DNA from: a virus
Strand: one strand, 5' to 3'
DNA length: 64,000 bases
IMG/VR virus record: IMGVR_UViG_3300019776_000461
Location: 20,703-84,702 of that record
Below, piece after piece: positions 26,615 through 53,957 of this stretch. A program made the translations under genes and the position numbers. The first letter of the stretch is position 1; each line of letters opens with the position of its first letter. The notes beneath the pieces are model-generated. The model was not told where the DNA came from. It searched no databases and saw only the letters and a program-made list of their open reading frames with translations.

Positions 26615-26622
26615 TATATTTG
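26615..26622 (+). promoter_or_regulatory. TAnnTTTG (-7) promoter element upstream of the trx/TS-like operon
   Basis: TTCGTATATTTGTA, same context as other copies. Confidence 0.65.
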
Positions 26623-26643
26623 TATAAATAATTGATTTTCAAC

Positions 26644-26662
26644 CCGTGACAATTTGTCACGG
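26644..26662. promoter_or_regulatory. Perfect palindrome CCGTGACAA-T-TTGTCACGG (operator or hairpin)
   Basis: 9-bp arms between the promoter and the thioredoxin RBS. Confidence 0.5.
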
Positions 26663-26695
26663 TTTCACTACCATCTATTTTCTTAAAGGACGGAC

Positions 26696-26953
26696 ATGAT
26701 TACCGTTAAACATTACACAGCTTCTTGGTGTATGCCATGTAAACAACTTAAACCCATTATGAGTGAAATATTACTTAAACGGCCAAACATAAATTACAAA
26801 CTTATTGATGTGGATAATGATCCAGATGAAGCATCGATGTATGGTGTTCGTGGAGTTCCTACTGTGATATTTATGAAAGATGGTGTTGAAGTAAATAGAA
26901 TTACTGGTTTGGTTTCAAGAAAAAATTACGAAATGGCAATTGATAATTTATAA
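26696..26953 (+). CDS. trxA: Thioredoxin
   Basis: WCMPC active site; YGVRGVPT cis-Pro motif. Confidence 0.92.
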   Translation: MITVKHYTASWCMPCKQLKPIMSEILLKRPNINYKLIDVDNDPDEASMYGVRGVPTVIFMKDGVEVNRITGLVSRKNYEMAIDNL

Positions 26954-26962
26954 TGGTGAAGT

Positions 26963-27661
26963 ATGACAGTTATAGAAGCGGTTTCTCCCGGTGACGCTTG
27001 GGTAAAAGTTTCTAAGCATTTGTTAGAGAAAGGGGAAAAAGTCGGTGAACTAATTGAAGAATTAAATGTAATGATGGAAATTACTCAGTTTGAAAGTGAT
27101 GATTGGTTTGATTCACACTTCAGAGAAGTAATGGGTGATGATAGAATTGATTTTGCTTCTTCTGTTACTTTCGTAGAACCTAAACCAAAAAAACCAATTA
27201 ACGATTTCTTTCAAGTAGAAGAAGGATTGGAATACCAATTCATTAAAGATCATTGGCATCAGTCCTATTGGGGAAGAATGATTAGTTGGCAAGGTACATT
27301 TAATCAAGTAGAAAACGTTATTAAAATTTTGAAACAAGGTAAAGCAGTTAAACGTTGTGAGTTAATTATATTTGACCCATCACGTGATTCACGCAATCCA
27401 TATTCTCAACCTTGTATGTTGATGATTGACTTGAAGCCACGTAATGGTAAGTTGTATTTAACTTCTGTTCTACGTTCTAATCGTGTTTCTAAAAGTGGTT
27501 ATGCTGATTATTCTGCTTTAGTTAATATGGGTAAGTTCTTAGCTAAAGAAAGTGATTTAGAGTTGGGAAAGGTTAGTGTATTAGCTTGTTCCTGCCACAT
27601 CGGTAAGATGAACAATGAACTTAAAAAAACAAAAGAATTGTTAAACATACTCAATAAATAA
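26963..27661 (+). CDS. Divergent thymidylate synthase / dNMP hydroxymethylase-family protein
   Basis: SYWGRM, NQVENVIKIL, catalytic PC (QPCML), LRSNRVSKSGYADY, SCHI. Confidence 0.75.
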   Translation: MTVIEAVSPGDAWVKVSKHLLEKGEKVGELIEELNVMMEITQFESDDWFDSHFREVMGDDRIDFASSVTFVEPKPKKPINDFFQVEEGLEYQFIKDHWHQSYWGRMISWQGTFNQVENVIKILKQGKAVKRCELIIFDPSRDSRNPYSQPCMLMIDLKPRNGKLYLTSVLRSNRVSKSGYADYSALVNMGKFLAKESDLELGKVSVLACSCHIGKMNNELKKTKELLNILNK

Positions 27662-27662
27662 T

Positions 27663-29168
27663 ATGTGCGGTATAATAGCAACCGTCGGTTATACTAAAAC
27701 TGACGTTGATAATATGTTGGAAACCATCGCTCACCGTGGTAAAGATAACCGTGGTATAAAAGAATTTTCTTGGGGCGATAGAAAAGTTATACTCGGACAC
27801 AATCGCCTTGCTATTAACGATACTTCTGCTGCAGGAAATCAACCGATGGAATGGGAAGGTATTCACTTAGTAGTTAACGGTGAAATATGGAATTATCCCG
27901 AACTAAGAAAAGAATACGAAGAAAGAGGATATGAGTTCAAATCAAATTCAGATTCAGAACTTATACTGTTTGTGTACAAAGAACAAGAATTGAAAAGACT
28001 TAACGGTATGTTTTCTTTTGTTATTTGGGATAACGGAAAGCTAATTCTTTCTCGTGATTGGGTTGGTAAGTTACCGCTCTATATTTTTAACAATAACACT
28101 TACATTATTGCAAGTGAAATAAAATCTATTGTTGAACAATTACCCAATGCTGAAATTAAATTTGTACCGAAAAATTCTTTGATTGAAATAGATGTAAGTA
28201 CAGATAAAATAACAGTTCATAAAGATTACTATTTTAACTTTTCAAATGAAACAACTTCACCTGAAACACATGAAGAATGCAGTATAACCACGTACAATCT
28301 ACTGGAGAACGCGGTAAGTAAAAGATTGTTATCTGATGTACCTATTGCAACTTCGTTGAGTGGTGGGATTGATTCCGCTGTTATAACGTATTTATTATCT
28401 ACTAAAATACCGAACTTAAAAGCATATACAATTGCTTTTGATGAAGATTCGCCTGACTTGAAGTACGCAAGAATAGTTGCAAAACATTTGGGTATTCAAT
28501 TAGTTGAAGTTTTAGTTCCAAGAAATGTAGAACTATTAAAACAAAGATTTTTGGAATCGATAAGAGTTATTGAATATCCATCTACCGTTCAAATGCAAGT
28601 TGGTATTCTACAATCGTTTATAGCAGAACAGATGGCAAAGGATGGAATAAAAGTTGCTTTTAGTGGTGAAGGTTCTGATGAAGCATACGGTTCTTATGGA
28701 ATGATAAGAATGTTCAGTAAGAAACCAGACTGGTCGGATATTAGAAAGAAATTATTTGAAAAGCAATACTATGGTAATTTATTACGCGGTAATACTATTT
28801 TCATGTATTATGGAACAATAGAATTACGTTGTCCGTTTTTCGATATTGATTTTCTAAATTACACTACTAACTTAACGAACGAATTTCTATCTGATAAATC
28901 TCAATGGAAACTTCCACTTGCAGATGCATTCAGACCGTACTTGCCTAAAGAAGTTATTGAACAAGAGAAACGTGCTTTTCAAAAAGGTACAAACTTCAAA
29001 GGATATATTGAAGATATAATTCTAAATGATAAAGAAATAAACTTTCGTAATAGAAAAAAGATGCTTCATGTAATTGGTGATAACTTTGAAAAGATTCATG
29101 GATTCTCACATAAGAAGATGAAGGGCGAACTTATTGGTAATAATGGTGGAATATTCAAATGGATTTAA
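27663..29168 (+). CDS. asnB: Asparagine synthetase B-like glutamine amidotransferase
   Basis: N-terminal MCGI Ntn nucleophile, HRGKD, GHNRLAI, NGEIWN, SDSE, LSGGIDS PP-loop, SGEGSDE. Confidence 0.88.
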   Translation: MCGIIATVGYTKTDVDNMLETIAHRGKDNRGIKEFSWGDRKVILGHNRLAINDTSAAGNQPMEWEGIHLVVNGEIWNYPELRKEYEERGYEFKSNSDSELILFVYKEQELKRLNGMFSFVIWDNGKLILSRDWVGKLPLYIFNNNTYIIASEIKSIVEQLPNAEIKFVPKNSLIEIDVSTDKITVHKDYYFNFSNETTSPETHEECSITTYNLLENAVSKRLLSDVPIATSLSGGIDSAVITYLLSTKIPNLKAYTIAFDEDSPDLKYARIVAKHLGIQLVEVLVPRNVELLKQRFLESIRVIEYPSTVQMQVGILQSFIAEQMAKDGIKVAFSGEGSDEAYGSYGMIRMFSKKPDWSDIRKKLFEKQYYGNLLRGNTIFMYYGTIELRCPFFDIDFLNYTTNLTNEFLSDKSQWKLPLADAFRPYLPKEVIEQEKRAFQKGTNFKGYIEDIILNDKEINFRNRKKMLHVIGDNFEKIHGFSHKKMKGELIGNNGGIFKWI

Positions 29169-29998
29169 TACAAACACCCATTGAAGAATATGAACTCAAA
29201 GGAAAAAAAGTTTGGGTTAAACGTGATGATTTAGTAGGTGATGGAATAAATTATCCAAGGTGGGCAAAGATAGAAGGAATTAAACAAATTCTAAGAAGCC
29301 CTGCCATTGATAAAAACAAACCATTAACGCACCTTTCAGTATATGGTAGTTGGACAGGTTGGGTTTTATCTAAACTCTGTAAAGAAGAAGGTATAGAATT
29401 TATTTCTTCTTATCCAGATACAAAGAAATTCCCAGTGAGTTTAATTGAAAGAGTAATGATAAATGGTGGAAAATTAAATCCACTAAAACCAAATATAATG
29501 GCGATACTAAATAATCGTGTAAAGAAACAAGCAATGGAAAACGGGTGGCAAATGTTACCGTATGCGTTCAATCATCCAATGTATATTGCATACATGGGTA
29601 GTAGAATGAAACAAGTATTGGAGGATAATGATTTTAACCACTTAGTTGTTTCGATGGGAAGCGGTGTAACGTGTTCTGGACTTATAAATTCATTCTTACA
29701 TTATACAGATTGGCGAGATGTTGTTAGTAACAGACGGCAAGTTCATGGCATTACAATGTCATCGATAAAATCAACGAGAAAAATATTAGAACAAAATGGA
29801 GCAGGTGGTAATAATAATATTCACATTTATAAATCGCCATTTGCTTTTGACGATATGATGTTGGATTATTCAGTACCGTTTGATTGTAATGAGTTTTGGG
29901 ATAAAAAAATGTGGTTCTGGTTAGAAGAAAACATTGAGAAATTAGACGGAAAAGTATTATTTTGGAATATTGGTGGTTCATATTTACAATCGATTTAA
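29159..29998 (+). CDS. PLP-dependent enzyme, fold type II (ACC deaminase / D-Cys desulfhydrase / TrpB-like)
   Basis: TPIE...VWVKRDDL...K, VVSMGSGVTCSG phosphate-binding loop, LFWNIGG. Confidence 0.75.
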   Translation: MDLIQTPIEEYELKGKKVWVKRDDLVGDGINYPRWAKIEGIKQILRSPAIDKNKPLTHLSVYGSWTGWVLSKLCKEEGIEFISSYPDTKKFPVSLIERVMINGGKLNPLKPNIMAILNNRVKKQAMENGWQMLPYAFNHPMYIAYMGSRMKQVLEDNDFNHLVVSMGSGVTCSGLINSFLHYTDWRDVVSNRRQVHGITMSSIKSTRKILEQNGAGGNNNIHIYKSPFAFDDMMLDYSVPFDCNEFWDKKMWFWLEENIEKLDGKVLFWNIGGSYLQSI

Positions 29999-30020
29999 TA
30001 TAAATAAAGGAGTTATGAAA

Positions 30021-30527
30021 ATGGCACAGACGTGGCATAGAAGATGGGATGATAGTTATGCTGAGGAAGCATTCAAGAACAGATTAAATTTACCTATTAA
30101 GTATGTAAAGTTAAGTAAAGACGCAGTTAAACCAGAATACTCACAAGACGGTGATGCTGGTATGGACTTAACAGCGACTTCATTTAGAGTTACAGATACT
30201 TTCATGGAATTTGGAACTGGTATTGCGGTACAGATTCCAGAGAATCATGTTGGACTTTTATTTCCAAGAAGTTCAATTACAAAATCTTCACCAGGCGTTT
30301 CTCTAAAAAATTCAGTTGGTGTTATAGATTCAAATTATCGTGGTGAAATTCTTGTGAGATTTGAATTACCTTACTCAGGAGAGGTGGGTGAAAATATTCC
30401 AGTTGTTGGTGATAGAGTTGCACAATTGGTTATTATTCCATACCCAAGAGTGAAATTCGTAGAAGTAGAGAAACTACCCGATACAAACCGTGGTCAAGGC
30501 GGATTTGGTTCAACAGATAAACAGTAA
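30021..30527 (+). CDS. dut: Trimeric dUTPase
   Basis: AGMDL, PRSS, GVIDSNYRGE, RVAQL, RGQGGFGST (alternative start 30015). Confidence 0.95.
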   Translation: MAQTWHRRWDDSYAEEAFKNRLNLPIKYVKLSKDAVKPEYSQDGDAGMDLTATSFRVTDTFMEFGTGIAVQIPENHVGLLFPRSSITKSSPGVSLKNSVGVIDSNYRGEILVRFELPYSGEVGENIPVVGDRVAQLVIIPYPRVKFVEVEKLPDTNRGQGGFGSTDKQ

Positions 30528-30574: not shown

Positions 30575-31204
30575 ATGTCAAAATTAACTAATATATTAAA
30601 AGAAAGTGGTTTATCGAGATTGGTTTACCACATGGAAATGCACGATTGCGGTACAATTACAGCCTTCCGTTCTAAAGAAGGCTGTGGTTTACCTGAAGAT
30701 TTACCGTACGCTCTACAAGATAACAAAAAAAGAAATGCTCAATTAAAAGCAAAACTTGAAATGATGGGGTACGGAACAACCGCAGTTAAAGGTGCTTATA
30801 TTGAAAACTACGGAACACCTGAAGCAATTGAAGTACGTGAAGATGTTTTCTTTGTTGTGGATTTACAAGACAAAGGAAACCTTGAAGCAGATTTAAGAAG
30901 ATTAGGTGAAGAGTATATGCAAGATTCTATTTTGTTTATACCAAGAGGTGGTAGAGGTTCTGTTCTCATCGGTACAAACCATTGTTCAGATTATCCAGGA
31001 TATGGCAGAACAATGCAATTCAATGATAGACAAATGGGCAAAGGTGGTCAGTTCATGACAAAAGTAAATGGTAGACCTTTTATATTTGAATCTAATTTAC
31101 TTGAACAAGTTGGAAACCATAACTATTATAGTGTTGCAAACAACATGGGTAAGTGGGCAATGAAAACTATTGCAAATAAAGATTGGAAAGATATTGAAAT
31201 TTAA
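30575..31204 (+). CDS. Putative S-adenosylmethionine lyase (T3 SAMase-like)
   Basis: ITAFRS...NKKRNAQL...GAYIE...RED...LGEEYMQDSILF matches in order the T3 SAMase VSAFRS...NMSRH...GCYRE...EEK...NEWEQDCVLV as recalled. Confidence 0.6.
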   Translation: MSKLTNILKESGLSRLVYHMEMHDCGTITAFRSKEGCGLPEDLPYALQDNKKRNAQLKAKLEMMGYGTTAVKGAYIENYGTPEAIEVREDVFFVVDLQDKGNLEADLRRLGEEYMQDSILFIPRGGRGSVLIGTNHCSDYPGYGRTMQFNDRQMGKGGQFMTKVNGRPFIFESNLLEQVGNHNYYSVANNMGKWAMKTIANKDWKDIEI

Positions 31205-31828: not shown

Positions 31829-32989
31829 ATGTATTTAGATTACTTTGACAAGTTCAAAGGAATGAGTCCTTACCTTGCGATTGATGAAATAGAATGGAAG
31901 TATATTCAAGAAACATTTGAGAAGGAAGATGTTTTAGAATCGATGGCAACACTTTTAATGACTTATGATTTACCATACGCTGACATTTCTATTGAAGATA
32001 CAACTTCTGAGTTTCAAAAGTTGAAGGCGATTAAGTGGAAAGAAATGTTAAAAGAAGGTAAGTGGAAAGCCAGACATAGTTACAATTTAGATTTTGAATG
32101 GAACGGAAAACCATTATTCTTTTCAAGAAGTAATGTAGGTAACTCTGCATCAAATTACTTTCAACAGGTAAACCGTTGGAAAGTTGATGCTGCATACTCA
32201 CCTGGTCCAGCAAGAAGTTGGACTTCTCTTCGTTCTATGATTTCTATATCAAAAGCGTTCTATACATTGAAATTTAAAAAGATTGATAAAGCAGCAGTTC
32301 GTTCTGCACTAAGTCTTAGAAAATATGTTTGCTCTCAATTCAAACCAAATGTTGCAAAGGCATTATACGATATGTATGGTGCTAAAACAATATTAGACTT
32401 CTCGGCAGGATGGGGTGATAGATTATGTGGATTCTATGCATCGGATAAAGCAGAAACATATATTGGAATAGACCCTGCTCCAAATAATCATTCTGTTTAT
32501 CATGAACAAGCAGATTTTTATTCTAAACAATTAGGTTGGTTTGATACGAAAAAATCAGTACATTTATACGAAGCACCCGCGGAAGATTGGGATAATTCAG
32601 AGTGGATAGGTAAAGTTGATTTAATATTTACATCGCCTCCTTACTTTGATACCGAACGATATTCAAACGATGATAAACAAAGTTGGGTTAGGTACAAGAA
32701 TATAGATTCTTGGAACAAAGACTTTTTACATAAGGCATTGGATAATGTATGGGAAACTCTTAAATCTGGTGGTACAATGATTATAAACATTGCAGACATT
32801 TATAATAGACCAGCAAAATCATATTTGAAAATATGTGAACCTATGGTAGAATACATGAAAGAAAAAGTGGATTGTATATACGAAGGTGCGATGGGTATGG
32901 AAATGGCAGTACGGCCGTCCGATACTGGAATAGATTATGATGATAAAGCAAAATTTGCAGAACCAATGTGGGTATTCAAAAAGGCATAA
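31829..32989 (+). CDS. DNA amino-methyltransferase (SPPY; m4C or m6A)
   Basis: LDFSAGWGDRL (motif I), FTSPPYF (motif IV), LKSGG. Confidence 0.8.
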   Translation: MYLDYFDKFKGMSPYLAIDEIEWKYIQETFEKEDVLESMATLLMTYDLPYADISIEDTTSEFQKLKAIKWKEMLKEGKWKARHSYNLDFEWNGKPLFFSRSNVGNSASNYFQQVNRWKVDAAYSPGPARSWTSLRSMISISKAFYTLKFKKIDKAAVRSALSLRKYVCSQFKPNVAKALYDMYGAKTILDFSAGWGDRLCGFYASDKAETYIGIDPAPNNHSVYHEQADFYSKQLGWFDTKKSVHLYEAPAEDWDNSEWIGKVDLIFTSPPYFDTERYSNDDKQSWVRYKNIDSWNKDFLHKALDNVWETLKSGGTMIINIADIYNRPAKSYLKICEPMVEYMKEKVDCIYEGAMGMEMAVRPSDTGIDYDDKAKFAEPMWVFKKA

Positions 32990-35555: not shown

Positions 35556-36275
35556 ATGGAAAAATCAAAGTTATTAAACTTCATTAGCAAATATCACTTG
35601 GGTAAATTAGTTCAATCTGTTGCTTGGAATGCAAACGGTGGATTAACAACTCGTTTTATTTCTGATGACAAATGTGTTGTGGGAGAAATTAAACTAAAAA
35701 GTTTCAGCGGTCAAGTAGCAAAGTTTGGTGTGTACGATACAAACTTACTTACAAGTCTTCTTGGTGTTCTTGGTAACACTATTGACTTCAAAATTAACGG
35801 TGCAGACGATAAAGCATTCGCTTTAACATTAAGTGATAAATCTACAACTGTTAATTATATGTTAGCTGATTTGGCAGTAATTCCACCTGCACCAGAGTTG
35901 AAAGAACTTCCACCATTTGAATTAGAAATGTCAATTACAAAAGATTTTATTGATAAGTTTATCAAAGCTAAATCTGCTTTATCTGATATTGAAAAGTTTA
36001 CTATTCTTAAAAACGGTAAGACTGATAAATGGCAAATTGTAATTGGTTATGCTAATACAAACTCTAATAGAATTTCAATCGATATTGATTGTACTTGCGA
36101 ACAAGATTTTGAACCAATTTCTTTTTCAGCAAAGTATTTCAAAGAAATTCTATCGGCAAATAAAGATTTGAACGGTGGTTCAATGAAAGTTTCCTCACAA
36201 GGTTTAGCAAAAGTTGAATTTGATATTGACGATTTTGAATCAAGATATTTCTTAGTAAAATTGGAAAACAACTAA
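35556..36275 (+). CDS. DNA polymerase sliding clamp (gp45/PCNA-like)
   Basis: 239 aa, two-domain alpha/beta pattern, between PolB and clamp loader; ends KVSSQGLAKVEF...SRYFLV. Confidence 0.75.
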   Translation: MEKSKLLNFISKYHLGKLVQSVAWNANGGLTTRFISDDKCVVGEIKLKSFSGQVAKFGVYDTNLLTSLLGVLGNTIDFKINGADDKAFALTLSDKSTTVNYMLADLAVIPPAPELKELPPFELEMSITKDFIDKFIKAKSALSDIEKFTILKNGKTDKWQIVIGYANTNSNRISIDIDCTCEQDFEPISFSAKYFKEILSANKDLNGGSMKVSSQGLAKVEFDIDDFESRYFLVKLENN

Positions 36276-37909
36276 TGAAAAAGTATTTCTATGAAAAAAG
36301 TGATATTCTGTCCTGGCCATCGAACATAACGTATGGCGAACTGGTTACGTTTGACGATAACAGGTTTTATGAATGGGCAGAAGATTTACGAATGAGGATT
36401 CTAACTGATTGGGATAATAATGGGAAACCACCAGTCGTTGGAAGAACTGAGGAAGAGATTAATCAATCATTCTCGAAACTCCGTCAGTTTAACGCTTCAT
36501 CTATTTTTCATAGTGTGGAAGATGGCAATGACTCTGACATGATTGGAGTCATTGCTAATTTCACAAAAGTTGGTTCTGCTGCAAATCAATTCTTTCCAAC
36601 AATGCTAAAAACTAAAATTGCATCTGGCATGGGAAGTGATTCTGGTAAATCGATTTACGATTATTTTACAGACTCTATGAAAGAAACATTTCATCATATT
36701 ATGAAGAGAAGTGTTTACAACGATTCTATGTATTTGTACAGTAAGTCTTTATCTTCAAATCAAGTAAAGAATCCTTACTTCAAAGAAGGTGAAACTCTTC
36801 GTGATTTCTTCATGGCGTATAAAAATGGTGATGGAAGATTCGATGGACAAGGTGTTCGTATTTCTAAAATATCGTGCACTCTACAAACTCAAAGTAAGAA
36901 ATATAAAAAGTATTTAACTATAAAGGCAGATGAGATTAGACAGTTCTTAGCGGAAGGTTTGATTGATGACTTCATGTTATTTACTTTGGGTAATCCAGAA
37001 GATTTAACTGATACATTTAATATACAAAAAGAAGGTTCTGAACCGAGGGCAAATGTTTATATTGTTCGTGTTTACGAAAAGAATATAAAACTATTTCCAA
37101 GTGCAATACAAGTATTTCGTATGTCATTCTGTCAGCCAGCGGTAAACTTTCCGCCTATGACCGCAAAGTTTCTTTATGAACACTTTACACAACATATACC
37201 TGCAAGTGAAACAGTAACAGTATATGACCCAAGTTCTGGCTGGGGTGGTCGTATTTTAGGTGCAATGTCTGTTGGTCGCCCAATACATTATGTTGGAACA
37301 GACCCAAATACAGATAACTTTATTGATGAATTAGGAATAAGTCGTTATGAATACCTTGCAGACTTTTTTCTAAAATCAATAGGCGAGCGAGGTACAAATG
37401 TATCTTCAAAGTTTTTTGTTACAAATGAAAATCATACATACGAACTTTTCCAAGATGGTTCGGAAACAATTCAATTTAATCCTAAATTTCAAAAGTATAA
37501 AGGTAAGTTAGATTTTGTTTTTACTTCACCTCCATACTTTAATAGAGAAATGTATTCTGATGATGCAACTCAATCGTATAAAGCACATAGTGAGTATGCT
37601 GATTGGCGTGATAACTTTTTACGCCCAACATTAGAAACAGCGGTTGCTTATTTGAAATCAGATCGTTATCTTTGTTGGAATATAGCTGATATTAGAATTT
37701 CAACTAACAAAATAGTTCACCTTGAAAAAGATTCAATTGATATATTAGAATCATTGGGAATGGAGTATGTAGGTAAATTTGGAATGGCAATGGGTAGAAT
37801 GATTGGTAACTCAGACCAAGAAAAATTGGCTGAAAGAACTTCTAATAAAGTTTTTCACAAAGGTCAATGGTGGAAACAAGAACCTATTTTTATATTTAAA
37901 AAACCATAA
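36275..37909 (+). CDS. DNA amino-methyltransferase (SPPY)
   Basis: VNFPPMTAK, YDPSSGWGGR, GTDPN, FTSPPYFNRE. Confidence 0.8.
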   Translation: MKKYFYEKSDILSWPSNITYGELVTFDDNRFYEWAEDLRMRILTDWDNNGKPPVVGRTEEEINQSFSKLRQFNASSIFHSVEDGNDSDMIGVIANFTKVGSAANQFFPTMLKTKIASGMGSDSGKSIYDYFTDSMKETFHHIMKRSVYNDSMYLYSKSLSSNQVKNPYFKEGETLRDFFMAYKNGDGRFDGQGVRISKISCTLQTQSKKYKKYLTIKADEIRQFLAEGLIDDFMLFTLGNPEDLTDTFNIQKEGSEPRANVYIVRVYEKNIKLFPSAIQVFRMSFCQPAVNFPPMTAKFLYEHFTQHIPASETVTVYDPSSGWGGRILGAMSVGRPIHYVGTDPNTDNFIDELGISRYEYLADFFLKSIGERGTNVSSKFFVTNENHTYELFQDGSETIQFNPKFQKYKGKLDFVFTSPPYFNREMYSDDATQSYKAHSEYADWRDNFLRPTLETAVAYLKSDRYLCWNIADIRISTNKIVHLEKDSIDILESLGMEYVGKFGMAMGRMIGNSDQEKLAERTSNKVFHKGQWWKQEPIFIFKKP

Positions 37910-37910
37910 A

Positions 37911-38996
37911 ATGAAAATTGATATTGAAAGTTTTGGAAAATTTATAAATGCTGACCCACTTGAAATTCGTTTGTGGAAAGAAACAGATGAATTTTTTAGT
38001 GACAAGCGTACGTTAGATGATACAATAGATTGTGTTTTTCAGTATTACCGTAAACATGGTTATCCATATATGAGTATTACTGATGAAGAAAAACATGAAC
38101 ACATGAAGAAACTTCAAAAATATGACTACGATAAACTGTTTAAGAATAATGATATTATTCAAACAATGCATGGACTTCGCTTGGCTTGGTCTTATTTTCC
38201 ACATGGAATGGAAGTGAAATGTGGTAATTCTAAAATGTCTCCTATGGATAATTTTTTGAATGACCATACATTTAAGATGACAATACGTAAGTGCTTGAAA
38301 TGGTTATATAAGCACACGGGCAATGGAAGTTGGCAAGAAAACCGTTTACGTCAATCATTAAAAATATATTCTGGTGTTCAAGGTGTTTCAAACTTTAGAC
38401 CAACTGCTGCAGGTGCTATATATAAAAGATTTGGTGGCAATGGTGTAATGTGGGATATGTCATGTGGTTGGGGTGGTAGATTAGTTGGTGCATTAGCATC
38501 ACCGTATATCGAAACATATATTGGAACAGAACCATCAACGAAAACATTTGAAGGACTTTGTAAACTACGTGATGATTTCTCGTATCTTGGTAAAGATATT
38601 CAACTACACATGATGGGTTCAGAAGATTTTATTCCAGAGAAAGAAAGTTTAGATTTGTGTTTTACTTCACCACCATATTTCGATACAGAAAAATATGCAG
38701 ATGAAGAAACTCAATCGTATAACAAGTTTCCAACTCGTGATACTTGGGGTTCTGGCTTTCTTTTTGGAACATTTAAGAATTGTTTCCATGGGTTGAAGCC
38801 AGGTGGTTATATGTTAATAAACATTGCTAATACACCGAAGTATAAAGACTTAGAAGAAATGACAATTCATTATGCAAAAGAAGCTGGATTTATTGAAGAA
38901 AATACTATAAATCTTATTCTTTCTTCTGTAATGGGTGCTGGTTATAAAAGAGAACCTATTTTTATATTTCGGAAGCCGTTGGTAGATAAGGAATAA
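37911..38996 (+). CDS. DNA amino-methyltransferase (SPPY)
   Basis: SNFRPTAA, WDMSCGWGGR, FTSPPYFDTE, LKPGG; start moved to MKIDIE. Confidence 0.8.
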   Translation: MKIDIESFGKFINADPLEIRLWKETDEFFSDKRTLDDTIDCVFQYYRKHGYPYMSITDEEKHEHMKKLQKYDYDKLFKNNDIIQTMHGLRLAWSYFPHGMEVKCGNSKMSPMDNFLNDHTFKMTIRKCLKWLYKHTGNGSWQENRLRQSLKIYSGVQGVSNFRPTAAGAIYKRFGGNGVMWDMSCGWGGRLVGALASPYIETYIGTEPSTKTFEGLCKLRDDFSYLGKDIQLHMMGSEDFIPEKESLDLCFTSPPYFDTEKYADEETQSYNKFPTRDTWGSGFLFGTFKNCFHGLKPGGYMLINIANTPKYKDLEEMTIHYAKEAGFIEENTINLILSSVMGAGYKREPIFIFRKPLVDKE

Positions 38997-40265: not shown

Positions 40266-40721
40266 ATGGCTGCTAAGAATATATTCGACCACTTAAAAGG
40301 TGTTACACTTCGTAAAACCAAGTGGGAATCCTTATCTGAAGAAGATAAGAAGAGTTGGAACAATTATATGATTTCACGTTTCTTCTCTATGGAGATGGAA
40401 CTAACGGACGTAATAAATGAGTTTCAGAAATACTCAAATGGAATATTATCATCGGAGGATTATTATAAACTATTATCGGACGCCTTACCAAAACATTCGT
40501 TCTTTCTAAAGTATGTTAAAGCTAAGAACAGAGTTGACATAGATGCAGAACTAATTACTTTATTTTGTAATCATTTCCAACTTGGAAAGAACGAAGTGTT
40601 TGAGTATATTCGTTTTCTTAAAAGAGAAAACCCAATTGAACTAACTAACATTTTGAAAAAGTACGGCACAAAAGAAGATGTAATAAAAGATTTTGAAAAG
40701 AAACTGAAGACAATTAAATGA
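40266..40721 (+). CDS. Clamp loader small subunit (gp62-like)
   Basis: NNYMISRFFSM...INEFQ...YYKLL...LKYVK resembles gp62; downstream of the gp44-like gene. Confidence 0.6.
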   Translation: MAAKNIFDHLKGVTLRKTKWESLSEEDKKSWNNYMISRFFSMEMELTDVINEFQKYSNGILSSEDYYKLLSDALPKHSFFLKYVKAKNRVDIDAELITLFCNHFQLGKNEVFEYIRFLKRENPIELTNILKKYGTKEDVIKDFEKKLKTIK

Positions 40722-41101
40722 GGAATAAAATGGCTATTAAAGAAATAGATTTAGGGCGGAAACAAAATGGGGCTGTATCTGAAATTGAAGAGAAGTTTCC
40801 TAATATGACCAAGGAGTTCAAACGTATTCAACAAGAACAGTATGAACTCTTCTGTGCAAAGCAAAAGAACTATGGCCCAGATAATATTTCCATGGGAAGT
40901 AATCTCGAACGAGAAGACGATCGTAAACTTTCTTTGCAGGGTTTATTCTTTCGTATTAACGATAAGATAAACAGATACAAACAAATGATTATGTTTGGTT
41001 CACAAGACGCAGTTGGTGAATCTCTAAATGATACATTCAAAGATATTTCTGTTTATGGAATTATCGCACAACTTGTTCAATCTGGTAAATGGGGGAAATA
41101 A
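40718..41101 (+). CDS. DUF1599 / nucleotide-modification-associated domain 1 (Nmad1)
   Basis: KQKNYG, RINDKINR, ESLNDTFKDISVYGII. Confidence 0.7.
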   Translation: MRNKMAIKEIDLGRKQNGAVSEIEEKFPNMTKEFKRIQQEQYELFCAKQKNYGPDNISMGSNLEREDDRKLSLQGLFFRINDKINRYKQMIMFGSQDAVGESLNDTFKDISVYGIIAQLVQSGKWGK

Positions 41102-42258
41102 TGAGTATATATATTTGGACTTCGGAATATGTAAGTGAAGGTCATCCTGATAAAATAGCTGACCAAATTTCAGATGCAGTTCTTGATTGGTACTTACAAA
41201 GAGACCCAGATGCAAAGGTTGCGTGTGAGGTTATGGTAAAGGATAGTGATATTTATGTTTCTGGTGAAATAAAATCAACGGTTGATAAAGATAAAAGAAC
41301 TTTAGAATTATCACTAACTCGATTAATTAGAGGACTTATAAAAGATATTGGATACACAAAAGAAGAATCCCCTTTCTTTAATTCAGACTATTGCCGTATT
41401 CATTTCAATATATCAACTCAATCATCAGAGATTAATCAAGCAGTTGATAAAGGAGATGTTGTTACAGCAGGAGACCAAGGTATTATGTTTGGTTATGCAA
41501 CTCGTGAAACTCCAACGTATATGCCGGTAGCAATTTACTTAGCTAAAAAACTAATTGAAGTTGCAACGGATATTAGAAAGAAAGGTAGTAAACTTGGACA
41601 TGTACAAAAACTTCGTCCTGATATGAAGAGTCAGGTGTCTGTTGCGTATAGTGGTAATGAAGCAGTTGGTATTCATTCTGTTGTATTTTCAACTTGTCAT
41701 TCTGAGTTGATTTCACTTGAAGAACTTAGAAAGTATTTCCACTCTGATATTTTACCAAAGGTATTAGAAAGTATTCCAGAAGAACTTGCTAAACTGTTTA
41801 CAGATAAAACTGTTTACCATATAAATCCTGCTGGTGAATGGAACATAGGTGGTCCAGTTTCTGATTGTGGATTAACTGGTAGAAAGATTGTGGTTGACCA
41901 ATATGGTGCTGATTGTGAAATTGGTGGCGGTGCTTTCTCAGGCAAAGACCCAAGTAAAGTTGATAGAAGTGCAGCATATATGGCTCGTCATATTGCCTTA
42001 AAAACACTTCATGAAAATGAAGAAGCAAATAAAATTAAAGTTCAATTAGCATATGTAATCGGTGAAGAGTTTCCTGTTTCATATCGTATATTTGACCCAA
42101 CAACTGGAAAAGAATATGGACTTGGTAAATTTAGTTTCAATGATTTAACCCCAAATAAAATCATTGAAAGATTAAAATTAAAAACTCCTATTTATTTACA
42201 GACTGCTAAGTACGGTCATTTTGGAAATAAAGATTTAGAATGGGAGAAAATTGGATGA
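41101..42258 (+). CDS. metK: S-adenosylmethionine synthetase
   Basis: TSEYVSEGHPDKIADQISD, AGDQGIMFGYA, RPDMKSQV, DCGLTGRKIVVD, GGGAFSGKDPSKVDRSAAY, YGHFG. Confidence 0.97.
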   Translation: MSIYIWTSEYVSEGHPDKIADQISDAVLDWYLQRDPDAKVACEVMVKDSDIYVSGEIKSTVDKDKRTLELSLTRLIRGLIKDIGYTKEESPFFNSDYCRIHFNISTQSSEINQAVDKGDVVTAGDQGIMFGYATRETPTYMPVAIYLAKKLIEVATDIRKKGSKLGHVQKLRPDMKSQVSVAYSGNEAVGIHSVVFSTCHSELISLEELRKYFHSDILPKVLESIPEELAKLFTDKTVYHINPAGEWNIGGPVSDCGLTGRKIVVDQYGADCEIGGGAFSGKDPSKVDRSAAYMARHIALKTLHENEEANKIKVQLAYVIGEEFPVSYRIFDPTTGKEYGLGKFSFNDLTPNKIIERLKLKTPIYLQTAKYGHFGNKDLEWEKIG

Positions 42259-43914: not shown

Positions 43915-45339
43915 ATGGCAAAGAAAAAAATATTATTACTATCTGACGATTTAAGATTAACGTCTGGTATAGCAACTGTTTCTCGTGATTTAGTTCTCGG
44001 TACAGTAAAAGATTTTGATTGGATTCAAGTGGGTGCTGCTATTAATCACCCAGACAAAGGGAAGATATTCGATTTATCTCAAGACGCAAGAGAACGTAGT
44101 GGTGATGAAACAGCTAGTGTTAGAGTTTTTTGTAATGATGGATACGGTGATCCATTTCTCATTCGTAGGTTGATTGATATAGAAAAACCAGATGCTATAT
44201 TACATTTTACAGACCCAAGATTTTGGGGATGGTTATATAATATGGAACATGAAATCCGTAAAAAAATTCCATTGATGTATTTGAATATATGGGATGGTGC
44301 TGGATTAATTGGAAATACCCCAACAGACCCAATGTGGAATAAAGAAGCGTATGCTAGTTGTGATTTATTAATGTCAATTTCAAAACAAACTTATGGTATA
44401 AATCATAGAGTTTTAAAAAGATTCAATGAAGAAATTGGTGAGCATAGAATAACTTATGTTCCACACGGAATCGATACTGATATGTTTTTCCCAATTAATA
44501 ATACGCATAGTGATTGGGGCAAACTACAAGAAGAACGTAAAAAAATTCGTAATGGTAATGAAGATAAGTTCGTTGTTATGTGGAATAACAGAAATATTCA
44601 TAGGAAACACCCAGGTGATGTTGTACTCGCATATAAACATTTTTGCCAACTCGTAGATAAAAATGGTGGTAATGCAGCAGAAGATTGTTCACTACTAATG
44701 CATACCCAACCAATAGACCCAAATGGAACTGACTTGGTAGCTTTAGTTGGTGAGTTATGTAATGAGTATACAGTTTTGTTTGATGATAAAATAGTTCCAT
44801 CACCACAATTGAATATTATTTACAATTCAGCTGATGTTGTTGTTAACATGGCTTCAAATGAAGGGTTTGGATTGGGAACAGCGGAAGCAGTTGCAGCAGG
44901 TGTACCTATCGTTGTTAATGTAACAGGTGGACTTCAAGACCAATGTGGTTTCATTAATCCAGAAACCAATCAATACTTTACACCAGATGATTATTTGAAA
45001 GTACACACACTCCATAGGAAAGATGAATGGGGACATTTGCAACACGGTGAATGGGTAAAACCAGTTTGGCCATCAAACATTTCAATACAAGGTTCAGTAC
45101 CAACTCCTTATATTTTTGATGATAGAGCAGATTTCCGAGATGTTGGACAAGCATTATATGAATGGTATAAGACTTCTAAATCAGATAGAGTATTCGCTGG
45201 ATTAAAAGGAAGAGAATTTATGATGAAGCCAGAAGTTGGAATGTCTCGTTTTAATATGTGTGAAAGAATTTCAAAAAGTATTAATGATACGTTTGAAAAT
45301 TTTGTTCCTAGAAAAAGTTTTGAATTATATTTAGTGTGA
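43915..45339 (+). CDS. Glycosyltransferase, GT-B (GT4-like)
   Basis: SGIAT, VPHGID, NRNIHRK, EGFGLGTAEA. Confidence 0.88.
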   Translation: MAKKKILLLSDDLRLTSGIATVSRDLVLGTVKDFDWIQVGAAINHPDKGKIFDLSQDARERSGDETASVRVFCNDGYGDPFLIRRLIDIEKPDAILHFTDPRFWGWLYNMEHEIRKKIPLMYLNIWDGAGLIGNTPTDPMWNKEAYASCDLLMSISKQTYGINHRVLKRFNEEIGEHRITYVPHGIDTDMFFPINNTHSDWGKLQEERKKIRNGNEDKFVVMWNNRNIHRKHPGDVVLAYKHFCQLVDKNGGNAAEDCSLLMHTQPIDPNGTDLVALVGELCNEYTVLFDDKIVPSPQLNIIYNSADVVVNMASNEGFGLGTAEAVAAGVPIVVNVTGGLQDQCGFINPETNQYFTPDDYLKVHTLHRKDEWGHLQHGEWVKPVWPSNISIQGSVPTPYIFDDRADFRDVGQALYEWYKTSKSDRVFAGLKGREFMMKPEVGMSRFNMCERISKSINDTFENFVPRKSFELYLV

Positions 45340-45346
45340 GGAAATA

Positions 45347-46648
45347 ATGAGTTATAGACCAAAATTAGTTTTTTGTGGACCAGTTACAACTATGAGTGGA
45401 TATGGATCTCATGCGAGAGATTTACTTTTATCACTTATAGAAATGGATAAGTTTGATGTTCAAGTAATATCAATAAATTGGGGAGAAACTCCAATGGATG
45501 CATTGGAATCCGATAATCCAGATATGAAAAAAATTAAAGACTTAATAATTCCAGGCTTACAATCACAGCCAGATATTTGGATGCAATGTACTATTCCAAA
45601 CGAATTTCAACCAGTTGGTAAATATAACATAGGAATTACTGCTGGTGTTGAAACCGATGCGTGTTCTCCTGAATGGGTTGATGGTTGCAATCGTATGAAC
45701 TTAATCATAGTTCCATCTAAACATGCTAAATGGGTATTTGAAAATACACAATATGATAAAATGGATAAACAAACAAATCAGAAAATAGGAACACTTAGTG
45801 TAACAGTACCAGTTGAGGTATTACACGAAGGCGTGAGAACTGATATATATGGAACAGATTTAGAGAAAGATTCTAATATAGTAGAAACATTAGATTCTAT
45901 TCCTAACGATTTCGTATATTTGTTTGTTGGACATTGGCTTAAAGGAGATTTCGGTCAAGATAGAAAAGATATTTCTGGACTAATTTATACTTTCTGTGAA
46001 ACATTTGGTGATACACCAAATCCACCAGCACTTCTTTTGAAATGTACAAGTGGAACATTTTCTATATCCGATAGAAGCAGAGTAATGGATAAAATAAATC
46101 TTATTAAAAAAATGAGTACAAAAAGAAATCTACCTGAAATTTATCTATTGCACGGTGAACTAACTGATAGTCAAATGAATTCTCTTTACAATCATAATAA
46201 AATAAAGGCTATGGTTTCATTTACAAAAGGTGAAGGATACGGAAGACCAATTGCAGAATTTATGGCATCTGGCAAACCTATTCTTGTTTCTGGTTGGAGT
46301 GGACACATGGACTTTATTAGTGAAAAGTTTCACATTCCATTAAAAGGTAAACTATTAGAGGTTCATCATAGTGCAGTTTGGGATACTATTATAAACAAAG
46401 GTACACGTTGGTTTACAGTAGATTATCAAAGTGCAGCAGAAACACTTGATAAAGTTCATAAAAACTATAACAAATATCTACAAAATTCTAAAATTGGAAT
46501 TCGTGAATTAAAAAGTATATGGTCATATACTTCCATGTGTAAAAAGTTTGAAGATATGTTAGATAAAAAACTTCCAAAGTTTGCAGAGAAAGTTACTCTT
46601 AGTTTACCTAAGCTAAGAAAAATTAGTAGTTCAGGAGAAACAAAATGA
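45347..46648 (+). CDS. Glycosyltransferase, GT-B (GT4-like)
   Basis: SGYG, DRKD, GEGYGRPIAEFMASGKP. Confidence 0.85.
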   Translation: MSYRPKLVFCGPVTTMSGYGSHARDLLLSLIEMDKFDVQVISINWGETPMDALESDNPDMKKIKDLIIPGLQSQPDIWMQCTIPNEFQPVGKYNIGITAGVETDACSPEWVDGCNRMNLIIVPSKHAKWVFENTQYDKMDKQTNQKIGTLSVTVPVEVLHEGVRTDIYGTDLEKDSNIVETLDSIPNDFVYLFVGHWLKGDFGQDRKDISGLIYTFCETFGDTPNPPALLLKCTSGTFSISDRSRVMDKINLIKKMSTKRNLPEIYLLHGELTDSQMNSLYNHNKIKAMVSFTKGEGYGRPIAEFMASGKPILVSGWSGHMDFISEKFHIPLKGKLLEVHHSAVWDTIINKGTRWFTVDYQSAAETLDKVHKNYNKYLQNSKIGIRELKSIWSYTSMCKKFEDMLDKKLPKFAEKVTLSLPKLRKISSSGETK

Positions 46649-47268
46649 TTTCGTACACTATAACTGCTTGTAACGAATACAATCAGTTAAACATTTTATT
46701 AAATTATTTAAACTCAAAGATTTCTAATAAAGATGAAATTGTTTTACAATTAGATAGTTTGTCTGTAACAGAAGCAGTACGAGACGTCGCAGATACTTAC
46801 AAACGTAAAATATCTAATCTAACAGTAATAGAATTCCCATTGAATAATGATTTTTCTGAGTTCAAGAATAATTTGAAAAAGTATTGTACTAAAGAATGGA
46901 TTTTTAATATTGATGCAGATGAAATTCCTGCTGAGATTTTAATGTTAGATATACATGAAATTCTAACAGAAAATAAAGAAGTGGATATGTTTTTAGTTCC
47001 AAGATGGAATACCGTTGAAGGTATAACTGAGGATCATATAAAAGAATGGCATTGGAACTATGATAAAGAAGGCAGAGTTAATTGGCCAGATTTGCAAACA
47101 AGAATTTATAAAAACAAAGAATCTATTGTTTGGAAAAACAAAGTACATGAGCGATTGATAGGTTTTACAACGTATGCTGTTCTACCTGAAGAAGTTGAGT
47201 ATTGTTTATTCCACCCAAAGACAATAGAACGTCAAGAAAAGCAAAATGAATTTTATACAACTATTTAA
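46645..47268 (+). CDS. Glycosyltransferase family 2
   Basis: ISYTITACNE, IDADE, WPDLQTR, VHERL. Confidence 0.8.
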   Translation: MISYTITACNEYNQLNILLNYLNSKISNKDEIVLQLDSLSVTEAVRDVADTYKRKISNLTVIEFPLNNDFSEFKNNLKKYCTKEWIFNIDADEIPAEILMLDIHEILTENKEVDMFLVPRWNTVEGITEDHIKEWHWNYDKEGRVNWPDLQTRIYKNKESIVWKNKVHERLIGFTTYAVLPEEVEYCLFHPKTIERQEKQNEFYTTI

Positions 47269-47276
47269 CATGAATC

Positions 47277-48041
47277 ATGGATAATCTTTTAATCGGTGCA
47301 ATAAGTGGCAATTATAATGTAAGCGATATTAGTAAGTGGGTTGAAACATCAAACACTATATCAGCTAAAAGAATATTATTGTTATATAATAACAACCCAC
47401 ATTCAGAGTTAGTACCGTACTTAACAAAAAACGGGGTTGAAGTTATTTTACCAGAGCATAACATGTATGGTGAATTTACAATACAGTTTCCAACAAACAC
47501 AGGAACAATGGACATAAATTCATCCTATGACTTAGTTCATAATTTAAGGTTCTTTCATATATGGCAAATACTAAATGAAAGTGAATTTGATAAAGTTCTG
47601 ATTACAGATGTTAGAGATGTATATTTTAACAGAGACCCATTTGCAGATATACCAGCAAATAAGATACTTGCTTCAAGTGAAGTAATTAAATATAAAAATG
47701 AGGATTGGAATAAAAGACATTTGTTTGTAAATTTAGGAGGAATGGGTGTAGAAACATTATTAGATAAAGAAGTTTATAACGTTGGTGTATTCGGTGGTGC
47801 TGCACATTGTGTTAAAGATATATGTAGAGATATATATTTGATTTCAATTGGTAAACGATTGGTAGCAGACCAAACTTCTTTTAATTATTTAATACAAACT
47901 TCTTATAAAGACAATGTAATGTTTACAGACTTGAATGATAAATTCGCTGTACATTTACATGTTATAGCCAATGGGCTTGTAGAATTTGATTTGAATGATT
48001 TGAGTAATTATGCAATAGTGCATCAATACGATAGACTTTAA
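47277..48041 (+). CDS. Putative GT-A fold glycosyltransferase
   Basis: ITDVRDVYF, NVGVFGG, DQTSFNY, HQYDR. Confidence 0.6.
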   Translation: MDNLLIGAISGNYNVSDISKWVETSNTISAKRILLLYNNNPHSELVPYLTKNGVEVILPEHNMYGEFTIQFPTNTGTMDINSSYDLVHNLRFFHIWQILNESEFDKVLITDVRDVYFNRDPFADIPANKILASSEVIKYKNEDWNKRHLFVNLGGMGVETLLDKEVYNVGVFGGAAHCVKDICRDIYLISIGKRLVADQTSFNYLIQTSYKDNVMFTDLNDKFAVHLHVIANGLVEFDLNDLSNYAIVHQYDRL

Positions 48042-48108
48042 TTTGGGAGAGAGGGAATGTAAGTTAGAGGTTAGGGAATTTTAATTTTATAAAAGGGAGA
48101 GACTCAGG

Positions 48109-48780
48109 ATGTTAGAAGCAATAGTTAGGGTAAAGGAATTAGGGTTAGATTTTGACCATGCAGAACATAAAATTTTATATGATGCTGCAAAAGACATTGT
48201 TGGTGTAGATGGTATAGTGTGTGAAGTTGGATTAAGACAGGGTGGCGGAATGGGAATTATGATACTTGGTTGTATTGATACTGAAAATACTAACCGCCCA
48301 TTTATAGCGATTGACCCATACGGTAATTTGATGTACAATGCACAAGAGGGATTGAATGTTAGATATGACTACACAAACGATATGAAGTATGAAACATTGA
48401 TTGCTTTATGTAAAGTTTCTTTACAAAACAATCTTTACTTTGATTTAATATGTTTGGAAGACACAACTTTCTTTAGTAAATATGAAAGTGGTATTCCAAT
48501 TTATAATTTACATACAACAGTTGTAAATACTTACGCATTAGTTCATCTGGATGGTCCACATGCACTACAAGACGTTTTAATGGAAGTTGAGTTCTTTATG
48601 GATAGAATTGCAAATGATGGTTACATAGTTCTTGATGATGTTAAGTATTATGATTTATCAAAAATTGAACCATTACTTATAAATAACAGTTTCAAATTAG
48701 TAGCAAATGATGGTAAAAAAGCATCATACAAAAAGGTAAATAAAGATGAAATACTCAATAATAATACCGTATCGGAATAG
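48109..48780 (+). CDS. Class I SAM-dependent methyltransferase (TylF/Methyltransf_24-like)
   Basis: CEVGLRQGGG, AIDPY, HLDGPH, IVLDD. Confidence 0.75.
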   Translation: MLEAIVRVKELGLDFDHAEHKILYDAAKDIVGVDGIVCEVGLRQGGGMGIMILGCIDTENTNRPFIAIDPYGNLMYNAQEGLNVRYDYTNDMKYETLIALCKVSLQNNLYFDLICLEDTTFFSKYESGIPIYNLHTTVVNTYALVHLDGPHALQDVLMEVEFFMDRIANDGYIVLDDVKYYDLSKIEPLLINNSFKLVANDGKKASYKKVNKDEILNNNTVSE

Positions 48781-49477
48781 AGAAGAACATTTAGAAATAC
48801 TATTACCTACACTTCAAGATTTTTTTAAGAATGAATCTTATGAAATTATTGTTTCAGAACAAAATAACAATGATAACTTCCAAATATCTTGTGTGCAAAA
48901 TATAGCATACAATTATGCGAAAGGTGACATAGTAATTTTTCATCAAGTCGATTATGTTCCATCAGCAGATGTTTCATATGATGTAATAGATTGTCCAGTA
49001 CTTCCTGCTAAAAAAGGAATATTTTTAGATAAAGATAACTCCACAACACGTGACTACTTAGACATACCAGGTGGATATAGAAACTGGCACGAAGAAATAG
49101 ATCCAAGGTTTTATGGTGGAGTTATTTGTATGAAGAGAGAACACTTTGAAGCAATAAATGGATTTAATCCTTTATACAAAGGATGGGGTAATGAAGATGA
49201 AGACTTGCGTGAAAGATTTGTTTGGGCTAATATTTCAGTTAAAAGAAATGAAGTTGGAACTTTCTATTGTCTTTATCATGAGGATAATGGTGATATGAGT
49301 AAGAAAAACGAAGATGGACAAAAAGACTTTTTTGAAGGTAGAAGATATTTTCACGAGAGGGCTTTTGAAGATAGACACATAGGTTACAAAAATTTAATAG
49401 CAGATGTGATTGAGGTTACAACTGATATTGAAAATGTTAGATGGATTAAGAGTACAAACTATAAAGTTATAAAATGA
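48746..49477 (+). CDS. Beta-1,4-galactosyltransferase-like (GT7)
   Basis: IIPYRNREEHL, FYGGV, INGFNPLYKGWGNEDEDL. Confidence 0.8.
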   Translation: MKYSIIIPYRNREEHLEILLPTLQDFFKNESYEIIVSEQNNNDNFQISCVQNIAYNYAKGDIVIFHQVDYVPSADVSYDVIDCPVLPAKKGIFLDKDNSTTRDYLDIPGGYRNWHEEIDPRFYGGVICMKREHFEAINGFNPLYKGWGNEDEDLRERFVWANISVKRNEVGTFYCLYHEDNGDMSKKNEDGQKDFFEGRRYFHERAFEDRHIGYKNLIADVIEVTTDIENVRWIKSTNYKVIK

Positions 49478-50439: not shown

Positions 50440-50440
50440 T

Positions 50441-51704: not shown

Positions 51705-51713
51705 GGATACTAT

Positions 51714-52445: not shown

Positions 52446-52447
52446 GT

Positions 52448-52999: not shown

Positions 53000-53014
53000 A
53001 ATGGAGATTATGTT

Positions 53015-53956: not shown

Positions 53957-53957
53957 T

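Follow-up and report, generated by a model that had tools for sequence, protein, structure and literature searches.

A candidate virus-only cassette for DNA base hypermodification that joins a thymidylate-synthase-like protein, an AsnB-type amidotransferase and a gp52-related pyridoxal-phosphate enzyme

What could be made by a thymidylate-synthase-like (TS-like) protein, an AsnB-type amidotransferase and a pyridoxal-phosphate (PLP) enzyme whose genes are packed end to end in the genome of an uncultured freshwater phage? This question is raised by a block of five genes at positions 26615-30527 of a 64,000-nucleotide stretch of viral DNA (the window), which is part of the 84.7-kb IMG/VR virus record IMGVR_UViG_3300019776_000461. 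The record is estimated to be 48% complete, and the window has a G+C content of 32% and an essentially one-strand gene orientation. A first-pass annotation had proposed that the block is a DNA base-modification pathway in which a side chain is attached to C5 of a pyrimidine at the nucleotide level; the block very probably serves base modification rather than housekeeping, and it is the attachment scheme that finds no support. The block is probably the core of a virus-only DNA base hypermodification cassette, the product of which would be an undescribed, likely amide- or amine-bearing pyrimidine, probably a cytosine. This reading is based on gene layout, conserved catalytic residues, homologies, modular synteny, natural fusions and the absence of the enzymes that start the known pathways, from which we infer all the chemical steps of the cassette. 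The combination of enzymes is not described in the literature searched, and its nearest studied relatives all decorate phage DNA bases.

The five open reading frames (ORFs) lie on the + strand and encode a thioredoxin of 85 amino acids (26696-26953; PF00085, 56.6 bits), a TS-fold enzyme of 232 amino acids (26963-27661; PF00303, 26.5 bits against a cut-off of 24.3), an AsnB-type glutamine amidotransferase and PP-loop adenylating enzyme of 501 amino acids (27663-29168; GATase_7 and Asn_synthase domains), a fold-type II PLP enzyme of 279 amino acids (29159-29998; phrog_7093, 5e-26, and homology to gp52 of phage M6) and a dUTPase of 169 amino acids counted from its ATG (30018-30527; PF00692; PRK00601, 103.5 against a cut-off of 103), for which a TTG at 29970 is also open as a start. 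The ORF coordinates confirm the positions and the tight spacing that had been reported for the five genes: 9 nucleotides (nt) lie between the thioredoxin and TS-like genes and 1 nt between the TS-like and AsnB-type genes, the AsnB-type and PLP genes overlap by 10 nt, and 19 nt separate the PLP gene from that of the dUTPase.

The PLP protein is a full-length homologue of gp52, the PLP enzyme of phage M6 on which the first-pass annotation had drawn (29.6% identity, 96% coverage of the PLP protein, 3e-22 by tblastn). No cultured phage with the cassette was found; the tblastn matches of the PLP protein were all M6-like phages, and its only relatives in cultured phages are their 'threonine dehydratase' genes. 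Purified M6 gp52 is a PLP-dependent decarboxylase of C-alpha-glycinylthymidine in DNA, for which Lys36 has been proposed as the Schiff-base lysine (PMC8989533). The predicted Schiff-base lysine of the window's protein, Lys37, aligns with gp52 Lys36 and is invariant among 15 relatives and gp52, and a profile search aligns it with the PLP lysine of the 1-aminocyclopropane-1-carboxylate deaminase homologue 1j0a. The GSGVT loop is retained, and the C-terminal block PFxCNxFWDxKxWxWL...FWNxGG is common to the PLP protein and gp52. Profile E-values to metabolic enzymes lie between 7e-5 and 0.003.

The AsnB-type protein carries the Cys2 nucleophile, an SGGIDS PP-loop and a GEGSDE motif, of which Cys2, SGGxDS and GEGxDE are invariant. 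Its best cultured-phage match is gp124 of Streptomyces phage TurkishDelight; the gene is flanked by those of a C5 cytosine methylase and a small CmoA-like methyltransferase and adjoins two ParB-like genes, a setting that has been described for CmoX, CmoA and CmoY. CmoY of phage S-B43, which is homologous to asparagine synthetases, joins glycine to 5-carboxymethylcytosine in DNA, and a glutaminase-bearing subgroup of the CmoY family is predicted to amidate with ammonia (PMC12783734). In sister cassettes (L021:9084-10010, L022, L026, L029-L031 and L046), the AsnB slot is filled by a PP-loop-only protein of 308 amino acids that has no glutaminase domain, and its best cultured-phage matches are S-B43 CmoY, at a distance, and a Staphylococcus phage that has the same three genes. 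By analogy with these systems, the AsnB-type enzyme is predicted to form a carboxamide.

The PF00303 match of the TS-like protein covers only its C-terminal half. The protein shows 66-96% identity over more than 100 protein clusters and is the most conserved product of the block, with 98.7% identity in relatives in which the PLP gene is 95% identical. Its predicted structure (pLDDT, the predicted local distance difference test score, 79) gave a VIA Z of 18.7 with the dCMP hydroxylase AfhB of HY126 (9iqu; the best structural match, with 198 residues aligned), 18.1 with MilA and about 16 with canonical TS, and the modelled fold is nearest to the short cytosine-specific members of the family. Residues were mapped onto Escherichia coli ThyA through ungapped HMMER alignments to MilA and to 9iqc (HY126 AfhB); an hhalign comparison of the TS-like profile with the ThyA of a complete relative (G002), which gave a probability of 1.1 and an arbitrary 3-residue gap, was not relied on. 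The catalytic Cys146 of ThyA corresponds to Cys151, which lies in a QPC151M motif that is invariant in 17 relatives and contains the Pro-Cys catalytic motif of the ThyA class. Among the phosphate-binding residues, Arg166 corresponds to Arg171, and Arg126 and Arg127 to Lys130 and Arg131. Neither of the ThyA-class residues Asn177 and Asp169 is kept: Asn177, which selects uracil, is replaced by Asp182, the cytosine state, and Asp169, which contacts the pterin, by Arg174 (Ala in more distant relatives), both substitutions being located in the motif RSNRVSKSGYADY. Leu143 is replaced by Ser148.

In the flavin-dependent 5-hydroxy-dCMP synthases, D169N is diagnostic and is accompanied by N177D and L143E, and the folate-dependent hydroxymethylases keep Asp169 and have an acidic residue at position 143 (PMC13326640). 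The TS-like protein shares N177D with the former and lacks D169N and L143E; from the signature of the dCMP and CMP hydroxymethylases (N177D, an acidic residue at 143, and Asp169) it again has only N177D. Judged by these positions in the sequence, it thus matches neither group. Nor is the TS-like gene the source of dTMP, because an ordinary ThyX or ThyA is encoded at another place in complete relatives: ThyX (1.6e-47) in a 177-kb genome (G001) and ThyA (316 bits) in a 276-kb genome (G002). The presence of these bona fide enzymes besides the TS-like gene makes a housekeeping role unlikely. Outside the window, a natural fusion of 676 amino acids (P0248) joins a TS-like domain, 49% identical to that of the window, to a radical S-adenosylmethionine (SAM) domain; its genomic context was not found in viral or metagenome contigs.

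Conserved co-occurrence of the three enzymes had been named as a check on the proposed pathway, and the synteny held when related loci were compared. Eighty such loci were fetched with the PLP protein profile, and the 42 with at least 4 kb on both sides form the well-flanked set, in which neighbours were counted within 5 kb of the PLP gene. An AsnB-type gene is present in 39 of the 42 loci, an amino-methyltransferase-like gene in 38, a TS-like gene in 26, a thioredoxin gene in 17, a D-2-hydroxyacid dehydrogenase gene in 16 and a dUTPase gene in 3. Relatives with 65-96% PLP identity, and three with 48-49%, have the TS-like, AsnB-type and PLP genes in identical order and spacing, except where the shorter PP-loop-only gene occupies the AsnB slot, and the three enzymes remain associated in relatives whose identity falls to about 47-70%.

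No locus has both a TS-like and a dehydrogenase gene, and each of the 42 has one of them. This exclusivity holds genome-wide, as three TS-type genomes that are 93-100% complete have no such dehydrogenase and a TS-like gene is lacking from a complete genome of the dehydrogenase type; the two genes are mutually exclusive alternatives. In one locus (L074), which shares the backbone of the window (thioredoxin upstream, a PolB of 55% identity downstream), the same site carries a cassette of HD-domain hydrolase, AsnB, dehydrogenase and PLP genes, which is a cassette swap. The TS-like protein consequently cannot be a universal attachment step, the dehydrogenase replacing it in 16 of the 42 cassettes. 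Dehydrogenase-type cassettes also contain a DGQHR/ParB-like gene, and a second TS-type arrangement runs from a homologue of MT544 (an amino-methyltransferase-like gene of the window, described below) through the TS-like, AsnB and PLP genes to an HD hydrolase.

Two of the five genes had been counted as pathway members and do not belong to the core. The dUTPase was rejected as a pathway enzyme on account of its presence in only 3 of the 42 loci; the slot after the PLP gene is a variable one that holds a nucleotide hydrolase in about 12 of the 42 (3 dUTPases and 9 HD-domain proteins). Thioredoxin is indeed found upstream, in the 17 loci counted above, with only 35-47% identity in the more distant ones, and is a loosely linked neighbour.

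A component that the first-pass annotation had omitted is as constant as AsnB. The window encodes, on the + strand, three paralogous amino-methyltransferase-like proteins: MT386 (31829-32989), with the motif I FSAGWG and the motif IV SPPY, and MT544 (36275-37909) and MT397 (37803-38996), each with motif I and SPPY; the true start of MT397 is probably downstream of the listed TTG. All three match PF01555 at 26.8-29.6 bits, just over the cut-off, have the class I SAM fold and belong to virus-only clusters. The model of MT386 has an amino-methyltransferase fold of the Trm11/METTL5 type; the structure search gave only generic class I matches, and its N-terminal region of about 170 amino acids had no structural match. 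In relatives with 59-72% PLP identity and in a few more distant ones, the gene that comes directly after the PLP gene is a homologue of MT386; a homologue of MT544 lies immediately upstream of the TS-like gene in the second cassette type, and MT397 is 46% identical to a methyltransferase-like gene located between the dehydrogenase and AsnB genes, downstream of the PLP gene, in dehydrogenase-type cassettes. Searching for longer forms of the PLP protein yielded a natural fusion of 761 amino acids (P0390), in which a PLP enzyme of 53% identity is joined through a Lys-rich linker to a full-length MT544-like protein; the contig encoding it was not found among the viral contigs searched. Because MT386 is nearly deleted in a 96%-identical relative (L004), where only its first 23 codons remain directly before polB (L004:12671-12739), no single methyltransferase-like paralogue is indispensable. 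In the window, the polB ORF, taken from the first listed ATG, overlaps the end of MT386 by 53 nt (32937-32989), and the true polB start may lie further downstream than this ATG.

The starter enzymes of the known thymidine pathways had been reported as absent, which profile searches upheld: the 84.7-kb record and two complete relatives gave no match to PF18724 (amino acid:DNA transferase) or to PF18748 (5-hydroxymethyldeoxyuridine (5-hmdU) DNA kinase). A C5-methylase of the CmoX type (PF00145) was likewise not matched in the record or in three complete relatives, and CmoA (TIGR00740), searched in complete relatives only, was not matched there. Because kinase, transferase, CmoA and C5-methylase were not found, every known start of the tailoring enzymes' pathways is missing.

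These features suggest the following order of events for the hypermodification cassette. The TS-fold enzyme would bind a cytosine mononucleotide, with Asp182 in place of the uracil-selecting Asn and with the phosphate-binding Arg and Lys residues kept, and Cys151 would add to C6, letting C5 take up a group. The co-substrate would not be bound in the manner of folate, given that Arg174 stands in place of the pterin-binding Asp, and its handling would differ from that in the flavin hydroxylases, where the residue is Asn. The phage PolB would then put the modified nucleotide into phage DNA. From homology, the AsnB-type enzyme may next adenylate a carboxylate of the side chain and convert it to a carboxamide with glutamine-derived ammonia, a step that would parallel the action of CmoY-type ligases on 5-carboxymethylcytosine in DNA. 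Finally, the gp52-type PLP enzyme may trim an alpha-amino-acid-like adduct on DNA, probably in concert with the amino-methyltransferase-like paralogues, of which another phage has one fused to this enzyme.

Parts of this scheme have counterparts in three groups of known systems. In the thymidine systems of M6 and ViI, too, a TS homologue supplies a modified pyrimidine nucleotide ahead of replication, amino-acid adducts on DNA are tailored by fold-II PLP enzymes from the same family (gp52 and gp226), and the genes form a cluster close to those for replication. The cassette differs from these systems in having neither the 5-hmdU DNA kinase nor the amino acid:DNA transferase, in the record as in complete relatives, and in the lack of a radical SAM isomerase in the complete relatives (the record was tested for the kinase and transferase); its TS homologue is of the cytosine type, without the folate Asp, and it has an AsnB-type amidotransferase and amino-methyltransferase-like genes instead. 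The CmoA/CmoX/CmoY pathway of S-B43, which produces 5-carboxymethylcytosine and the corresponding glycine amide (PMC12783734), resembles the cassette in that an ATP-dependent ligase of the asparagine-synthetase family adjoins an enzyme that attacks C5 of cytosine, and a CmoY-like PP-loop-only protein occupies the AsnB slot of sister cassettes. In contrast to S-B43, CmoX is absent from the record and complete relatives and CmoA from complete relatives, the enzyme attacking C5 would have a TS fold and act on a mononucleotide, and a PLP enzyme is added.

The 5-hydroxy-dCMP synthases (HY126 AfhB, 9iqu and 9iqc; RB69 gp48; DLP3 gp80; PMC13326640) share with the TS-like protein the compact TS fold of about 220-235 amino acids, the catalytic Cys, N177D, action at the nucleotide level and the presence of glycosyltransferases elsewhere in the genome. 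They differ in that the TS-like protein has Arg174 where they have D169N and Ser148 where they have L143E, the partners here are AsnB and PLP enzymes and not adjacent arabinosyl- or glycosyltransferases, and the sequence similarity is marginal (profile E 0.04). The dCMP hydroxymethylase gp42 of T4 and the CMP hydroxymethylase MilA, the latter being the best sequence match among solved structures (3e-5), likewise have the TS fold, the catalytic Cys and Asp at the position of Asn177; they keep Asp169 and an acidic residue at 143, whereas the TS-like protein has Arg and Ser there.

Several observations weigh against a hypermodification cassette with a TS-fold enzyme at its start. The TS-like gene is absent from 16 of the 42 cassettes and from the complete genome of the dehydrogenase type, and because TS-less cassettes exist, the shared enzymes cannot depend on it. 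Cytosine, the most likely target base, follows from one residue rule, and no deoxynucleoside monophosphate kinase or dCTPase that would serve the modified dCMP was identified. The AsnB-type protein passes the NCBIfam asparagine synthase model (TIGR01536, 290.6 against a cut-off of 267.1) and would be annotated as asparagine synthase under NCBI rules; with the AsnB-specific PRK09431 it scores 248.6, far under the cut-off of 499. It also keeps the SGEGSDE of E. coli AsnB, and its sequence would thus be compatible with plain asparagine synthesis. The PALP Pfam match of the PLP protein, at 16.7 bits, is below the cut-off of 35, and the protein could catalyse another type of reaction than gp52, to which it is about 30% identical. 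Palindromes, finally, are strongly avoided in the whole 84.7-kb record (observed/expected 0.24 for GATC, 0.18 for CCGG, 0.23 for CTAG and 0.32 for TTTAAA; no GATATC against 24.8 expected and no GGTACC against 14.2 expected), which is unexpected for DNA that is substituted throughout and fully protected. It suggests that the DNA is not blanket-protected and that any modification may be partial or sequence-specific.

Three other explanations of the block have been weighed. The scheme of the first-pass annotation, in which all steps occur on free nucleotides, would have the PLP enzyme make an amino-acid-derived electrophile such as aminoacrylate, the TS-like protein attach it through its Cys adduct and AsnB amidate it, giving a C5 alanyl-type side chain on dCMP or dUMP before polymerisation. 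Such a scheme would agree with the translational coupling of the three genes through a 1-nt gap and a 10-nt overlap, with their fixed order in all TS-type cassettes, with the nucleotide hydrolase (dUTPase or HD domain) that often follows the cassette, and with the beta-replacement that fold-II PLP enzymes typically perform, the profile of the PLP protein weakly matching cysteine synthases. The nearest studied relatives of both tailoring enzymes, CmoY and gp52, however, act on DNA (PMC8989533, PMC12783734), and an enzyme-bound aminoacrylate would need to be shared between two separate proteins. The scheme fits poorly because P0390 joins a PLP enzyme to a DNA-methyltransferase-like protein and because PLP and AsnB genes occur without a TS-like gene in 16 of the 42 loci and a complete genome; attachment of a PLP-made unit through the TS Cys adduct at the nucleotide level is without support, and the scheme as a whole is quite unlikely. 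It is about equally improbable that the block consists of unrelated auxiliary metabolic genes lying side by side (a divergent TS, AsnB, a PLP enzyme of the cysteine-synthase or dehydratase type, thioredoxin and dUTPase) that boost the nucleotide and amino-acid supply of the host or, in a variant, make a small-molecule cytosine nucleoside or glycan precursor. The TIGR01536 score of AsnB, the annotated asparagine synthases of other phages, the SerA-family membership of the alternative partner, 2-hydroxyacid dehydrogenase, the position of MilA, a nucleoside-antibiotic enzyme, as best PDB sequence match of the TS-like protein and the large glycosyltransferase island 14 kb downstream would all be in keeping with this. 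Auxiliary metabolism would nevertheless leave unaccounted for the canonical ThyX or ThyA elsewhere in complete relatives, the changed dUMP and folate active-site residues of the TS-like protein, the far greater closeness of the PLP protein to gp52 than to metabolic enzymes, the strict coupling and order over deep divergence, the CmoY-like ligase without a glutaminase domain that sometimes fills the AsnB slot, and the interleaving of the cassette with DNA-methyltransferase-like and ParB/DGQHR-like genes.

A less remote but still doubtful explanation is that two independent layers are superimposed: a core of methyltransferase-like, PLP and AsnB proteins would build a SAM-derived adduct on an exocyclic base amine, and the TS-like enzyme would separately make a simple C5-modified dCMP, hydroxylated or hydroxymethylated for example, or merely provide the acceptor. 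The methyltransferase-like genes in 38 of the 42 loci, one of them fused to the PLP gene, the interchangeability of the TS-like and dehydrogenase genes as add-ons, the Trm11/METTL5-type fold modelled for MT386 and the phage-encoded SAM synthetase (MetK) point in this direction. The TS-like gene, however, is always immediately upstream of the AsnB-slot gene, coupled to it, and never elsewhere in the genome; MT386 is deleted in the 96% relative, and ordinary methyltransferases near replication genes are frequent in phages. There is a comparably small chance that the core and MetK install the 3-amino-3-carboxypropyl group of SAM (or aminopropyl, after decarboxylation by the PLP enzyme) on DNA bases and then amidate or trim it. 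This chemistry would be the DNA counterpart of the logic of 3-amino-3-carboxypropyluridine (acp3U), wybutosine and diphthamide, and exchangeable modules, either the TS-like enzyme or the 2-hydroxyacid dehydrogenase, would diversify its product.

Two other genes of the window may supply the hypermodification cassette and are given here as context only. MetK (41089-42258, + strand), which has all three S-AdoMet synthetase Pfam domains, possibly provides SAM for the three methyltransferase-like proteins, and a DUF1599/Nmad1 protein (40718-41101, + strand; PF07659, 22.2 bits, below the cut-off of 25) is possibly a nucleotide-pool enzyme. The genome that encodes MetK and the three paralogues also encodes a SAM-lyase-family protein at 30575-31204 (PF23780, 40.9 bits). 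An island of 11.5 kb at 43915-55444 contains at least 8 glycosyltransferase-like genes (GT4, GT2 and GT7-like), together with a TylF-type methyltransferase, DUF6165 and an NDP-sugar epimerase/dehydratase; its target could be DNA, the virion or a host glycan.

A single TAnnTTTG promoter had been placed in front of the block. The word TATATTTG, which fits this Bacteroidota-type -7 consensus, is present at 26615-26622 on the + strand, 74 nt upstream of the thioredoxin start. Because the window contains 136 TAnnTTTG words where about 103 are expected, a single copy is no evidence of a promoter, and the word was rejected as such evidence as too frequent in AT-rich DNA. Between this word and the thioredoxin start lies a near-perfect palindrome (26644-26662: CCGTGACAA-T-TTGTCACGG, with 9-bp arms and one central base, then TTTC), which could be an operator, a hairpin in the 5′ untranslated region or the terminator of the upstream gene of 898 amino acids.

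Searching 50,697 phage records with the block by blastn returned nothing relevant. The cassette is nevertheless abundant in large freshwater and marine phages, where it is represented by hundreds of protein clusters. Sequence of the phage itself was present at 60-78% of sampled words in aquatic, lake, freshwater and one marine metagenome, among assembled contigs of at least 8 studies besides the probable source. RNA-library contigs of at least 99% identity span the junction of the TS-like and AsnB genes in two studies (X15 record 2 and X17 record 14), a weak hint of transcription, as DNA may be present in such libraries.

Hypermodifications of phage DNA defeat restriction enzymes and CRISPR, and they are a source of enzymes and base chemistries for biotechnology. 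Elements of three pathways that were discovered separately come together in the cassette, and the starter enzymes of all three are missing. Should the cassette be a modification pathway, it would add a fourth reaction type to the thymidylate-synthase fold and represent a new way of attaching and amidating side chains on DNA, and the exchange of the TS-like gene for a dehydrogenase would be a natural experiment for dissecting each step.

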